Virus record (IMG/VR): IMGVR_UViG_2778261592_000001
Span: 1 to 6,627 of that record
Length of the DNA stretch: 6,627 bases
Strand: one strand, 5' to 3'
From: a virus
Taxonomy: Duplodnaviria; Heunggongvirae; Uroviricota; Caudoviricetes
In this document: piece after piece, positions 2,691-6,511 of the stretch
Layout of the letters: the number at the start of each line of letters is the position of its first letter
Position numbering within the stretch: position 1 is the stretch's first letter
Program-made: the position numbers and the translations under genes
Notes under the pieces: model-generated
The model's input: the letters and a program-made list of their open reading frames with translations, nothing else
Databases searched by the model: none
What the model was told of the DNA's origin: nothing

Positions 2691-2733
2691 AAAAAGGGCG
2701 GCAGAGCAGTCACGGAGTAAAACTGATACCGCC
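2691..2733 (-). terminator. Rho-independent terminator forming the DicF 3' end
   Basis: Minus-strand GGCGG (plus 2729-2733) pairs with CCGCC (within plus 2696-2701), followed by a five-U tract (plus 2691-2695). Confidence 0.6.
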
Positions 2734-2748
2734 AAACGTCACCAGAAA
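2696..2748 (-). ncRNA. dicF: DicF small regulatory RNA (53 nt)
   Basis: Minus-strand sequence UUUCUGGUGACGUUUGGCGGUAUCAGUUUUACUCCGUGACUGCUCUGCCGCCC followed by UUUUU (plus 2691-2695) matches recalled DicF exactly. 3' GC-rich stem (GGCGG/CCGCC) plus U-tract forms the intrinsic terminator. Confidence 0.85.
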
Positions 2749-3758: not shown

Positions 3759-3793
3759 GGCAGCCAAAAAGATAACGCATTGATTGCGTTATC
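3759..3793 (-). terminator. Candidate intrinsic terminator at the end of dicA
   Basis: Inverted repeat GATAACGCA (3771-3779) / TGCGTTATC (3785-3793) with 5-nt loop; the dicA stop codon lies in the stem. On the minus strand it is followed by TTTTT (plus 3766-3770). Confidence 0.45.
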
Positions 3794-4196
3794 TTTTGTT
3801 TGTTCGTTGACGGGCTTTTAATAACTCTTCAAAGAGTTTGTTGAAATTTTTTACTCGGGCGCGCATCTCGGTGAGCTGAGCATCCTGTTCTGATTCAGGC
3901 AATGCATTAAAAAGCTCAAGGAGCTCATGTTCTTTGGGGGATAGAGCAACTGGCTCCTCAATAGGTGGTGATGGCTGCTTGTCTTCATCGCCAAATAGAA
4001 TCCATGTTGGCGAGCACTGCAGTACTTTGCTGAGGGCAAAAAGATTCTTTCCTGTAGGTTCGCTATCATCCCGCTCCCATTGTGAAACCGATACGTGAGA
4101 AATTTTCAGGACTTTAGCAAGAGACCTTTGGGTGTATTTGAGGTTTTTTCGGCGATATCTAATGCGTTCGCCAATGGTTAAATTTTTTGTATCCAT
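3789..4196 (-). CDS. dicA: DicA, CI-like HTH (XRE family) prophage repressor, 135 aa
   Basis: MDTKNLTIGERIRYRRKNLKYTQRSLAKVLKISHVSVSQWERDDSEPTGKNLFALSKVLQCSPTWILFG... near-identical to recalled K-12 DicA. Divergent from the Cro-like gene. No obvious Shine-Dalgarno. Confidence 0.9.
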   Translation of the reverse strand: MDTKNLTIGERIRYRRKNLKYTQRSLAKVLKISHVSVSQWERDDSEPTGKNLFALSKVLQCSPTWILFGDEDKQPSPPIEEPVALSPKEHELLELFNALPESEQDAQLTEMRARVKNFNKLFEELLKARQRTNKR

Positions 4197-4218
4197 AGTT
4201 AGCTAATGCTAAATCTTA

Positions 4219-4247
4219 TTGACTATGTTTTTGTTAACATCTATTTT
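4219..4247 (+). promoter_or_regulatory. Candidate sigma-70 promoter for dicC
   Basis: TTGACT (4219-4224), 17-nt spacer, TATTTT (4242-4247); the 20-bp operator palindrome overlaps the -10 and the predicted transcription start. Confidence 0.5.
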
Positions 4248-4265
4248 GTTAGCCATGGCTAACAA
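4246..4265. promoter_or_regulatory. Perfect 20-bp palindromic operator, candidate DicA binding site
   Basis: TTGTTAGCCATGGCTAACAA is its own reverse complement. Located in the dicA-dicC intergenic region; two degenerate copies lie upstream of ydfA. Confidence 0.65.
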
Positions 4266-4279
4266 TTAAGGTGCTTTAA

Positions 4280-4510
4280 ATGCTTAAAACTGACGCACTT
4301 TTGTATTTCGGTTCAAAAACAAAACTTGCACAAGCTGCTGGTATTCGTTTGGCTTCGCTTTATAGCTGGAAAGGGGAGCTAGTACCTGAAGGTCGCGCGA
4401 TGCGCCTGCAAGAGGCATCCGGCGGGGAACTTCAGTACGACCCCAAAGTTTATGACGAATATCGTAAGGCAAAGCGGGCGGGGCGGTTGAACAATGAAAA
4501 TCACCCCTGA
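4280..4510 (+). CDS. dicC: DicC, Cro-like regulator, 76 aa
   Basis: MLKTDALLYFGSKTKLAQAAGIRLASLYSWKGELVPEGRAMRLQEASGGELQYDPKVYDEYRKAKRAGRLNNENHP matches recalled DicC. TAAGG 8 nt upstream of the ATG. Confidence 0.9.
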   Translation: MLKTDALLYFGSKTKLAQAAGIRLASLYSWKGELVPEGRAMRLQEASGGELQYDPKVYDEYRKAKRAGRLNNENHP

Positions 4511-5045
4511 ACAGGTTTGTGAGGCTCTGGATGCCTGGGTGTGCCGACCAGGAATGACACAGGAACAGGCGACGATATTAATCACGGAAGCATTCTGGGC
4601 TCTGAAAGAACGCCCGAACATCGATGTTCAACGCATCACGTTTAATGATGGCGAGGTTGATCAACGGGCACTGGGCGTTAACCGGGTGAAGATATTCGAA
4701 CGCTGGAAAGCTATCGACACCAGGGATAAGCGGAAAAAATTCACGGCGCTGATTCCGGCAATTATGGAGGCTATCCGAATTAGTGATTTCAGGTTGTATC
4801 GTGAGATCAGTGATGGAAAAAGCATTACGTACATGATCGCCGGATTAAACAAAGAATATGGCGATGTGGTGGAGTCCGGGCTGCTTTTTGCGGATCCATC
4901 TGTTGTGGAACGTGAGACTGACGAGCTTATAGAAAAAGCTATTGCTTTCAAGCATGCGTATCGTCAGCAGTATCAATATTACTTTGCAGATAAACAAATA
5001 TCTGCCAGGGGTTCGTATGAGTATCGATGCACTACGATGGGCTAA
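4494..5045 (+). CDS. YdaT-like (CII-analog family) protein, 183 aa; intact counterpart of the K-12 ydfX remnant
   Basis: Complete ORF starting 17 nt before the dicC stop. Begins MKI... and has the motif KFTALIPAIMEAI, resembling the KLIPAILAIL region I recall in Rac YdaT. Same position (after the cro-like gene) as ydaT in Rac-type prophages. Family assignment is from memory only. Confidence 0.55.
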   Translation: MKITPEQVCEALDAWVCRPGMTQEQATILITEAFWALKERPNIDVQRITFNDGEVDQRALGVNRVKIFERWKAIDTRDKRKKFTALIPAIMEAIRISDFRLYREISDGKSITYMIAGLNKEYGDVVESGLLFADPSVVERETDELIEKAIAFKHAYRQQYQYYFADKQISARGSYEYRCTTMG

Positions 5046-6057
5046 AAAGGTGAAAACCGGCAGTTCATCCAGTAAGTCTGTATTGACCTGGCTTGCTGAT
5101 ATGTGCGGTGCCGATTTGTGTGCATACCCGTCTGTATCTGCACTGGCAGAAGTAACGGAACTGAACAAAAAGACTGTGCAGGACAGCTTACGACACCTGA
5201 TGGAGATTGGGTTAATTGTTGATACCGGTGAGAGAAAAGGCAGAACAAAGCAAATTGTGGTGTACCGACTTATCGGTGTAGAAGAAAGTGTTGCCGAGCC
5301 TGAATACACCCAAAAACGGGTGTCTTTAAAGGTGGGTAAAATTGGTGCTGTTAATAAAAACAGTACCGAAAACGGTTATGTTTCAGCACAAAAGAGCCCC
5401 AAAAACGGAACTCTTTGTTGCATGGAAAATAACCAAAGACACCCAAATTTTCCATCAAAGACACCCAAAAACGGATCACGGAACCCAAAGGAACCCAAAG
5501 ATCTAAACCCCACACATAACGCACACGAGAGTGCTCCGATCAGTGAGCAGGAAGTTTTGTCGTTACAGGCAGCCCCCCATGTATTCCTGGATGGCCTGAG
5601 CGAACCCATCGGAAAATTTCCGATGACCGATAGCTGGTATCCGTCACGGGATTTTCGACGACGGGCTGCGTTGTGGGGGATGGCTTTGCCGGAGACAGAA
5701 TTTACACCTGCTGAACTTACCGCATTCCGGGACTACTGGGCAGCGGAGGGGAAAGTGTTTACGCAGATTCAGTGGGAGCAGAAATTCGCCCGTCACGTAA
5801 ATCACGTCAGGGCGCAGGTTAAACCAGTCAGCAAGGGGGTAAACCATGCAGCAGCACCAGGTGGCACCGCATCACGGGCAGTTCAGGAAATTCGGGCAGC
5901 ACGTGAGCAGTGGGAACGTGAAAACGGATTTATCAGCGACGGAAACGGCCTGGAAGCTGTGGGAACTCATGGGGGAGGTTTATTCGAACCGCTGGACCCA
6001 GAAGAACGGGGCCGCACCTTCGAAGCTCTGGATTGCACAGATTGGCGCGATGACTGA
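5017..6057 (+). CDS. Phage replication initiation protein: winged-helix N-terminal domain, low-complexity linker, DnaT-like C-terminal domain (346 aa from chosen start)
   Basis: Start ATG 5017 (MSIDALRWAKKV...) has AGGGG 5 nt upstream and overlaps the upstream gene by 29 nt; the track ORF start at 4942 would overlap by 104 nt. C-terminal segment (WYPSRDFRRRAALWGMALPETEFTPAELTAFRDYWAAEGKVFTQIQWEQKFARHV) resembles DnaT-like ssDNA-binding domains. Occupies the lambda O position upstream of a P-like gene. Confidence 0.7.
   Translation: MSIDALRWAKKVKTGSSSSKSVLTWLADMCGADLCAYPSVSALAEVTELNKKTVQDSLRHLMEIGLIVDTGERKGRTKQIVVYRLIGVEESVAEPEYTQKRVSLKVGKIGAVNKNSTENGYVSAQKSPKNGTLCCMENNQRHPNFPSKTPKNGSRNPKEPKDLNPTHNAHESAPISEQEVLSLQAAPHVFLDGLSEPIGKFPMTDSWYPSRDFRRRAALWGMALPETEFTPAELTAFRDYWAAEGKVFTQIQWEQKFARHVNHVRAQVKPVSKGVNHAAAPGGTASRAVQEIRAAREQWERENGFISDGNGLEAVGTHGGGLFEPLDPEERGRTFEALDCTDWRDD
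5397..5500. repeat. Iteron-like direct repeats (ACCCAAA core), candidate replication origin inside the initiator gene
   Basis: CAAAGACACCCAAA at 5434-5447 and 5456-5469 (22-bp spacing); CCCAAAAACGGA at 5398-5409 and 5464-5475 (66-bp spacing); tandem GGAACCCAAA at 5480-5489 and 5490-5499. A moderately AT-rich stretch lies just upstream (5350-5395). Confidence 0.5.
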
Positions 6058-6511
6058 GCAGCAAATCCGGCAGGTCTGCCGCCAGTGCATGGACCGCTGC
6101 CGGGCGGGTGAAACATGGCCTCCGGACCTGGCTGAGTTTGTGGCGCTGATTTCGGAAAGCGGGGCCAATCCATTTGGCCTGACGGTGGATGCTGTGATGG
6201 AGGAGTATCGCCGCTGGCGTAATGAGTCCTGGCGATATAACGGAAGCGACAAATATCCGTGGCCTCAGCCTGTGCTGTATCACATTTGCCTCGAGATGCG
6301 TTCAAAGGGGATTGAACGCCAGATGACCGAAGGGGAATTAAAACGGCTTGCAGAACGGCAGCTGACGAAATGGGCAAAGCATGTTAGTAACGGCCTGAGC
6401 GTTCCGCCAGTACGGCGACAACTGGCGGCACCAAAACGCCCGTTGGGACCAACGCCAATTGAGTTGCTGAAACAGGAGTATGAACGCCGGAAAGCGGCTG
6501 GTTTTGTCTGA
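6050..6511 (+). CDS. Lambda P-like replication protein (DnaB helicase loader family); start uncertain, in-frame alternatives at 5969 and 5846
   Basis: Resembles recalled lambda P: AMTEQQIRQVCRQ..ETWPPDLAEFVALI vs ITTMEQVNAGMRVARRQ..PFLPSPGQFVAWC, and YPWPQPVLYH..TEGELKRLAERQ vs YPWKSNAHYW..TDAELRRKAADE. ATG 6050 overlaps the upstream stop as ATGACTGA. The frame is open from 5846, which has AAGGGGG 6 nt upstream and would give 221 aa. Confidence 0.7.
   Translation: MTEQQIRQVCRQCMDRCRAGETWPPDLAEFVALISESGANPFGLTVDAVMEEYRRWRNESWRYNGSDKYPWPQPVLYHICLEMRSKGIERQMTEGELKRLAERQLTKWAKHVSNGLSVPPVRRQLAAPKRPLGPTPIELLKQEYERRKAAGFV

Follow-up and report, generated by a model that had tools for sequence, protein, structure and literature searches.

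A YdaT-family gene in the immunity region of a Qin-like prophage and a candidate leftward promoter beside its start

What is the role of the gene that follows dicC in this prophage, and does its length reveal an additional domain? The window, that is, the whole stretch of 6,627 nucleotides that was analysed, is the immunity and early region of a Qin-like lambdoid prophage, and the gene in question is an ATG-started ORF of 183 codons plus a stop (4494..5045, plus strand), present in the ORF listing of the window exactly as the first-pass annotation had described it. That annotation proposed that the product belongs to the YdaT family, that the gene sits where a CII-like regulator would be expected and that its last 40-50 residues might be an extra module. 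The best overall explanation, which we regard as probable, is that the ORF codes for a YdaT-family activator, analogous to CII, that would act from a box at its own start on a leftward promoter, while the end of the protein would be the by-product of a module junction.

The gene, its neighbours and its protein family

The gene order is dicA on the minus strand, followed on the plus strand by dicC, the ydaT-like ORF, an O-like initiator gene and a lambda-P-like helicase loader gene. dicA (3789..4196; NCBIfam DicA, 235.6 bits) codes for a CI-like repressor and is the presumed target of the leftward promoter discussed below. The cro-like dicC (4280..4510, plus strand; 76 aa; NCBIfam DicC, 159.6 bits; Pfam P22_Cro) is the upstream partner of the ydaT-like gene in the rightward operon, and the initiator gene (5017..6057, plus strand), whose product begins with MSIDALRWAKK, codes for an N-terminal wHTH and a DnaT-like domain (Pfam DnaT domain, PHROG 1032, RefSeq). 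The minus strand also carries the DicF RNA (2696-2747) and the DicB, DUF1482 and DUF1391 genes. The ORF, with a cro-like gene before it, the replication genes after it and a divergent CI-like repressor gene, is therefore in a cII-like slot, and the same slot is flanked by cro-like and O-like genes in phages HannyBb, mEp460 and PhiR42_1. The overlaps that had been noted with both neighbours are real: 17 nt are shared with dicC (4494-4510, dicC ending at 4510) and 29 nt with the initiator gene (5017-5045), whose ATG at 5017 is also the start used in RefSeq. Likewise, the LIPAI segment described as central lies at residues 86-90, inside FTALIPAIMEA; its counterparts in the alignments are ALLPAIEKA in CP-933P YdaT and KLIPAILAI in Rac YdaT.

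Family membership was examined with several profile methods. The protein matches Pfam PF06254 (YdaT_toxin) with 25.3 bits, the gathering cut-off being 21, and PHROG 163, 'CII-like transcriptional activator', over residues 1-170 (E=1.4e-41). No model of the NCBIfam scan matched it, and a weak match to the APAF-1 WHD in the Pfam scan (E=0.15) was set aside as noise. When a single sequence was used in phmmer searches of the PDB, the matches were not significant (E=0.18-0.22). Significance required a profile built from 35 full-length homologues, with which 8bt1 (E=2.3e-7) and 3c4r (1.8e-6) were recovered, the alignment to the former reaching into its alpha6. Additionally, hhalign aligned residues 1-106 with residues 1-90 of Rac YdaT at 97.9% probability.

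Structure prediction points in the same direction. An AF2 model based on the alignment of the 35 homologues has a mean pLDDT of 84.7, and 8bt1 and 3c4r are, again, the only PDB entries that Foldseek matched to it credibly (probability 1.00; TM normalised to the target 0.65 and 0.53). The predicted N-terminal domain is an all-alpha, POU-like HTH with helices at 5-16, 23-36, 57-73, 77-97 and 99-106 and with the long alpha2-alpha3 loop typical of the family (37-56, ~20 residues); two C-terminal helices, 111-130 and 135-~161, follow it. In the recognition helix, R70 and W71 are invariant across the 35-sequence alignment and align with the HRW motif of Rac YdaT and the F-RW motif of CP-933P YdaT, the equivalent arginines being R57 and R60, respectively. 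The counterparts of this Arg-Trp pair are required for DNA binding in Rac YdaT (PMC11879457), and that of the arginine is the single fully conserved recognition-helix residue in CP-933P YdaT (PMC9986795). E69 stands where Rac YdaT has H56, which is also needed for DNA binding by that protein (PMC11879457). Identity to the experimentally studied YdaTs is about 25-30%.

Taken together, the Pfam, PHROG and PDB profile matches, the Rac alignment and the phage neighbourhoods bear out both the family assignment and the CII-like position that had been claimed. Judged from its sequence and predicted fold, the ORF codes for a YdaT-family transcription factor, and by analogy the family is the functional counterpart of lambda CII in lambdoid prophages of the Qin, Rac and CP-933P types.

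The box over the start codon and a candidate leftward promoter

A putative inverted-repeat YdaT-box, TTGAAC-AATGAA-AATCAC, is found at the start of the gene (4487..4504, no strand assigned), with the ATG (4494) in its spacer and TGA-N10-TCA as its core. It lies in the same sequence register as two boxes that have been studied experimentally: the footprinted Rac box, ATGATT-CATGAA-AATCAA, which also holds the ydaT ATG in its spacer (PMC11879457), and the CP-933P box, TTGATT-N6-AATCAA, which is located at the ydaS/ydaT junction and bound by tetrameric YdaT (PMC9986795). With 9 of 12 positions in agreement with TTGATT-N6-AATCAA, the window box is a weak palindrome; it is the sole match to relaxed box patterns in the window, where 0.4-0.7 matches per 6.6 kb are expected by chance. 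Its conservation is more informative than its score. In fact, a box is present at the start of essentially all the homologues that were fetched, and TGA at -6..-4 and ATCA at +7..+10 are kept in every lineage examined, the remaining upstream sequence being unrelated, while Ile3 is always encoded by ATC. In a Salmonella lineage whose protein, beginning M-I-T, has one residue fewer, a different arrangement, TGAACAACCATGATCA, retains the 16-nt TGAA-N8-ATCA unit. As the unit is maintained even when the ATG is shifted by one codon, the DNA motif must be constrained in its own right.

Other repeats were also found nearby. A direct repeat, 4499-4515 / 4553-4569 (two copies, 76% identity), was considered as a possible lambda-CII-style site, but it is unsupported by relatives and likely due to chance. 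Further short inverted repeats (I3 and I4) are present inside dicC.

On the minus strand, 16 of 17 independent upstream contexts (mutually <60% identical) have the hexamer TAnnnT 21-22 nt beyond the box, against a background of 1.3% per position (binomial P~1e-24). For this comparison, a second scan of viral contigs was carried out with a profile of distant members; the first scan had recovered only near-identical 183-aa copies and served for the polymorphism described below. Three further lineages, inspected by eye and kept outside the statistic, also have TAnnnT at a like spacing, including a CP-933P-type phage with TTGATT-CATGAA-AATCAA, and the lineages covered are of the Qin-like, Salmonella/Citrobacter, Serratia, Klebsiella, Rac and CP-933P types. 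Protein coding does not explain the hexamer, as the upstream cro-like ORFs encode unrelated peptides across it and, relative to the box, have six different end points in two reading frames.

In the window, the hexamer is TACGAT (4461..4466, minus strand, read from 4466 to 4461), 21 nt from the box, and it is a candidate -10 element of a leftward promoter. The implied start, about 7 nt downstream of the hexamer (~4454), would place the box centre (4495.5) at about -41.5. No -35-like hexamer accompanies this candidate. A sigma-70 scan detected no consensus promoter on the minus strand, its sole site being the rightward, pR-like 4219-4247; this null result is uninformative because the candidate would be activator-dependent. 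From the sequence, we infer that the candidate has the geometry of an activator-dependent, pRE-like promoter.

The proposed mechanism would then run as follows. The ydaT-like protein would be expressed from the rightward dicC promoter and would oligomerise through its C-terminal helices, CP-933P YdaT being a tetramer (PMC9986795). It would bind TTGAAC-N6-AATCAC, straddling its own start codon (4487-4504), and the bound protein would activate the leftward promoter with its -10 at 4466..4461 and no recognisable -35. The resulting transcript would cross dicC in antisense and continue into dicA, so that repressor synthesis and, with it, lysogeny would be favoured.

The activities of the studied relatives are of this kind, since Rac YdaT activates, via its box, a reverse promoter driving racR (PMC11879457), and CP-933P YdaT activates PRE933P (PMC8630535). 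Nevertheless, the proposed adjacent-promoter geometry differs from both published placements. The YdaT-dependent Rac promoter, PracR4, is about 190 bp from the box (PMC11879457), and the CP-933P papers draw a predicted PRE with the box covering the start site (PMC9986795, PMC8630535). We entertain, at slightly less than even confidence, the family-wide proposal that the ydaT-start box is paired with an antisense TAnnnT 21-22 bp from it and that the true establishment promoter adjoins the box. If so, the activator would sit at about -41.5 of a promoter without a -35 element, in a class-II-type arrangement, and the M-x-I-(T/S/K/N) N-terminus and the ATC codon of Ile3 would be conserved because they form part of the operator. 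The one modestly new point of this analysis is that, across the family, the YdaT-box and an antisense, -10-like hexamer keep a fixed distance from each other. This architecture could help to place the repressor-establishment promoter of many dicA/dicC-type prophages, including relatives of Stx phages, and to reconcile the differing placements in Rac and CP-933P.

Alternatively, the main role of the protein could be the regulation of host genes, besides or instead of its role in the prophage. There is a precedent in Rac YdaT, which rewires the Rcs regulon and binds, upstream of rcsA, to a 7/12 box (PMC11879457), and the tetramer has two DNA-binding faces (PMC9986795), but CP-933P YdaT does not activate rcsA (PMC11879457) and the window contains no box other than that at the start of the gene itself. 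We deem a mainly host-directed role unlikely, though the protein may have some such role in addition to that in the prophage.

Length of the protein and its carboxyl-terminal tail

The protein is, as had been pointed out, longer than the 140-aa Rac YdaT, by 43 residues. However, these give no support to a C-terminal module of 40-50 residues: 16 of them belong to the N-terminal DNA-binding domain, mostly to the alpha2-alpha3 loop, which ranges from 9 to 23 residues in YdaTs (PMC9986795), ~5 belong to the C-terminal helical region and only the last 22 form a tail. The family body runs to residue 161 (codons 1-161, 4494..4976, plus strand), as judged from the AF2 model, Foldseek, the profile search of the PDB, alignments and dN/dS, and what is specific to this variant is confined to residues 162-183. 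For instance, the homologues of Citrobacter, Salmonella, Klebsiella, Raoultella, Enterobacter, Trabulsiella, Buttiauxella and others have 160-165 aa; they align through residue ~161 (...AYRQQYQ) and stop 1-4 residues later. The C-terminal region of the body is itself divided into its two predicted helices, 111-130 and 135-~161, by a conserved G/A-P break, and the second helix starts with an acidic motif, D-F-E-R-E-C-D-E in most members and V-V-E-R-E-T-D-E in the window protein. In the alignments, the break and the acidic motif are a trait of the whole subfamily, not an addition in this copy.

The tail proper (4977..5045 with the stop, plus strand) reads YYFADKQISARGSYEYRCTTMG. The 173-aa variant of E. 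coli ends instead in 12 unrelated residues, QKAGWNYEPSFC, and tails of 12 or 4 aa are found elsewhere. The DNA matches that of the 173-aa variants at about 90% identity as far as ~4977 and only at random beyond; on the sequence comparison, the immunity and replication modules meet at this position in a mosaic boundary of the lambdoid kind. After it, the tail frame crosses the leader of the initiator gene, its ribosome-binding site and its first nine codons, and then stops. The model becomes less confident along the tail, with pLDDT values of 63 (161-170), 51 (171-180) and 45 (181-183), and no family was found when the last 54 residues were scanned alone against Pfam. Among 30 distinct 183-aa alleles, codons 162-174 have 2 synonymous and 5 nonsynonymous variable codons, against 33 and 17 in the body, which suggests relaxed constraint on this part of the tail, although with only 7 variable codons no Fisher-type significance is claimed for the contrast. 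The tail is most likely a recombination by-product at the junction with this replication module, rather than an added functional domain.

It could be argued that the 22 residues are a functional add-on, such as a degradation or instability tag or a means of coupling to the DnaT-like initiator. Lambda CII does bear a C-terminal proteolysis signal, the low-confidence prediction suggests that the tail may be flexible, and the tail has 95-100% DNA identity in 908 genomes and stands beside this initiator in every sampled entry. In the same sample, tail and initiator were not found beside other cII types, a YdaT-family gene being upstream in all cases. Against this reading, the tail starts exactly where homology to the other variants ends, their own 12-aa or 4-aa tails are unrelated to it, nonsynonymous exceed synonymous variable codons in 162-174, and the Pfam scan of the C-terminal end gave no family. 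Besides, the start and the ribosome-binding site of the initiator gene in any case constrain the last 9 codons of the tail and the stretch that precedes them. A functional tail is thus improbable, and we keep to its interpretation as a by-product of the junction.

Conservation, remaining alternatives and related systems

The gene is widely distributed. Its product has the same sequence as RefSeq WP_000705369.1, 'toxin YdaT family protein', and the ORF recurs with identical DNA, as an annotated gene, in several strains, E. coli O145:H28 among them. Of 5,426 complete E. coli genomes, 2,103 (about 40%) carry 80% or more of the gene, and 908 carry its junction with this initiator. In the isolated phages HannyBb, mEp460_ev081 and PhiR42_1, the gene between cro and O codes for a 173-aa version, with about 90% identity over residues 1-161, that annotators have labelled cII or CII-like. 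Full-length homologues at 34-47% identity occur across Enterobacterales, and homologues number in the hundreds.

Conservation in related prophages, which the first-pass reading presupposed, was also observed. Among 80 near-identical viral-contig loci, a script located the ORF in 69, and in all 69 it is open for exactly 183 codons. Compared with the HannyBb and PhiR42_1 homologues over codons 1-161, dN/dS is 0.09-0.10 at a dS of about 0.5. The hundreds of homologues, the low dN/dS and the conserved open frame indicate that this is not a chance ORF, and profile and fold homology, the phage copies and the dN/dS of ~0.1 make it a genuine, selected member of the YdaT family. As the gene is annotated and widespread, the finding counts as already known: it is an ordinary part of the immunity regions of Qin-like prophages. 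The question as posed matters little, the function being readable from two studied relatives.

These observations also bear on the possibility that the gene is a relic of a cryptic prophage, intact in appearance, functionally idle and kept by recent descent alone. Many copies do reside in defective prophages, many alleles are truncated or frameshifted, and the K-12 copy is truncated; such a relic is, however, very unlikely, given a dN/dS of about 0.1 at a dS of about 0.5, an open frame in 69 of 69 located loci, presence in isolated phages and full-length homologues retained across Enterobacterales at 34-47% identity. The K-12 copy is YdfX (b1568, 96 aa), which a 2025 NAR paper named as the Qin homologue of YdaT (PMC11879457). 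The first-pass annotation had stated that only pseudogene remnants are found at this position of K-12 Qin; a truncated ydfX is indeed located there, but RefSeq lists ydfX and ydfW as CDS, not as pseudogenes. The locus is orthologous, as YdfX is 88% identical to residues 1-94 and, in MG1655 Qin, its gene overlaps dicC by 17 nt, as in the window. It differs by a deletion after codon 94, with DNA homology ending at window position ~4774, so that YdfX lacks every oligomerisation helix as well as the last part of the DNA-binding domain.

That the protein acts as toxin, and DicC as antitoxin, in a toxin-antitoxin pair of the YdaS/YdaT type is hinted at by the database names ('YdaT_toxin', 'toxin YdaT family protein'), by a sub-threshold match of dicC to YdaS_toxin (18.7 bits, cut-off 30) and by the filamentation and death caused by Rac YdaT overexpression (PMC11879457), but is extremely unlikely, given that the toxin-antitoxin idea was an early prediction that failed experimental tests in relatives, CP-933P YdaT not being toxic and YdaS and YdaT acting as Cro and CII analogues (PMC9986795, PMC8630535), that the Rac toxicity is accounted for by transcriptional activation of rcsA (PMC11879457) and that the predicted fold is a HTH DNA-binding domain with oligomerisation helices rather than a toxin fold. 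For this subfamily too, "toxin" is a misleading name.

The YdaT-family activator favoured here can be compared with three known systems. The best structural and profile match is CP-933P YdaT of E. coli O157:H7 (8bt1; 3c4r is from E. coli O6). Both genes come after a cro-like gene, and the proteins share the POU-like HTH with a long alpha2-alpha3 loop (as predicted for the window protein), the IF-RW recognition helix and the LxPAI helix. CP-933P YdaT uses its C-terminal helix for tetramerisation, and C-terminal helices are also predicted in the window protein. Additionally, an inverted-repeat box, TTGATT-N6-AATCAA, covers the ydaT start in the CP-933P type, as seen in the closely related phage Tritos. 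By contrast, identity is about 27%, the loop has ~20 residues in the window protein against 14, and the C-terminal region is predicted to form a helix, the G/A-P break and another helix, where CP-933P YdaT has one 29-residue helix and a disordered end. The left half-site is TTGAAC rather than TTGATT, the neighbouring repressor is DicA rather than PaaR2, and the 22-aa tail has no counterpart in CP-933P YdaT.

Rac YdaT of K-12 (b1358, 140 aa) shares with the window protein an N-terminus beginning MKI, the identical position of the ATG in the box spacer and a TAnnnT hexamer 21 nt from the box. It differs in having a DNA-binding domain that is 16 residues shorter, and regulation of the host gene rcsA is known only for Rac YdaT.

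The third system, lambda CII, occupies the same slot of the genetic map and is a tetrameric HTH activator of a leftward repressor-establishment promoter with a poor -35, as the window protein would be by analogy. No Phage_CII match was found in Pfam at E<=1 and no CII structure appeared among the Foldseek matches; lambda CII is a functional analogue only, with no relationship in sequence or fold. DNA recognition differs too: the site of lambda CII is a direct repeat, TTGC-N6-TTGC, to which it binds as a dimer of dimers, and that of YdaT is an inverted repeat, bound with 222 symmetry (PMC9986795).

Start site of the lambda-P-like loader and genes around the ydaT-like ORF

Adjacent to the minus-strand DicF sRNA, which is present at full length (window 2696-2747; Rfam RF00039, 76.7 bits), lie the DicB and DUF1482 genes, and together they form a typical Qin-like division-inhibition cluster. 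In the ORF listed for DicB (97 aa), the Pfam match spans residues 36-97, so the real start of this gene is internal. Further along, the dicA-dicC intergenic region (4195-4266) carries a perfect 20-bp palindrome, TTGTTAGCCATGGCTAACAA, at 4246-4265 and an imperfect copy related to it at 4195-4212, which flank a rightward promoter-like site (4219-4247). The palindrome and its copy are presumably the DicA/DicC operators. Downstream, the mechanically called plus-strand ORF of the lambda-P-like loader (5846-6511) would encode 221 aa and overlap the initiator gene by 212 nt, while the start used in RefSeq, equivalent to window position 6050, gives a protein of 153 aa and an overlap of 8 nt. The true start of the loader gene is uncertain, as the Pfam P-domain match opens at residue 56 of the long ORF.

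C-terminal half of the YdaT-like protein

Past a conserved G/A-P break, the beginning of the second C-terminal helix of the ORF carries a strongly conserved acidic motif, which reads D-F-E-R-E-C-D-E in most homologues and V-V-E-R-E-T-D-E in the window. The region comprising the motif and this helix (residues 135-161, window 4896-4976) may be an interaction surface or a piece of a larger helical bundle; no description of it was found in the portions consulted of the Rac and CP-933P papers.

Among the homologues there is a very common Salmonella allele (P0110, P0105, P0109, P0112 and P0130, with clusters of 879, 411 and 106 members), whose match is limited to the first ~65% of the query, the C-terminal half being unrelated. 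The pattern suggests that a frameshift downstream of ...LLKK, now fixed, has removed both C-terminal helices; the allele may represent either a pseudogene or a variant that only binds DNA.

Additionally, near-identical copies (91-92%) of the E. coli prophage gene were found on contigs labelled as Collinsella, Bacillota and Veillonella MAGs and on a Rhodococcus qingshengii record (L008, L009, L010; P0056), assignments that almost certainly reflect binning or assembly contamination and not host range.

Box and antisense hexamer at the ydaT-like start

A TGAW-N8-WTCA box spans the start codon of the ydaT-like gene, with an antisense TAnnnT hexamer 21-22 nt away (together, window 4461-4504), and this architecture is conserved family-wide (loci L003, L013-L019 and L100-L182). 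The arrangement is kept in 16 of the 17 independent contexts and, by visual inspection, in three more lineages, including the CP-933P-type and Rac ones. In the 'MITPET...' lineage of Salmonella-type viral contigs (L108-L169), the start codon lies one codon nearer ATCA (TGAACAACCATGATCA) and the protein is one residue shorter. As the 16-nt box is retained despite the loss of this residue, the comparison indicates that it is constrained at the DNA rather than the protein level. The promoter positions given in the literature for Rac and CP-933P are unlike the box/TAnnnT geometry.
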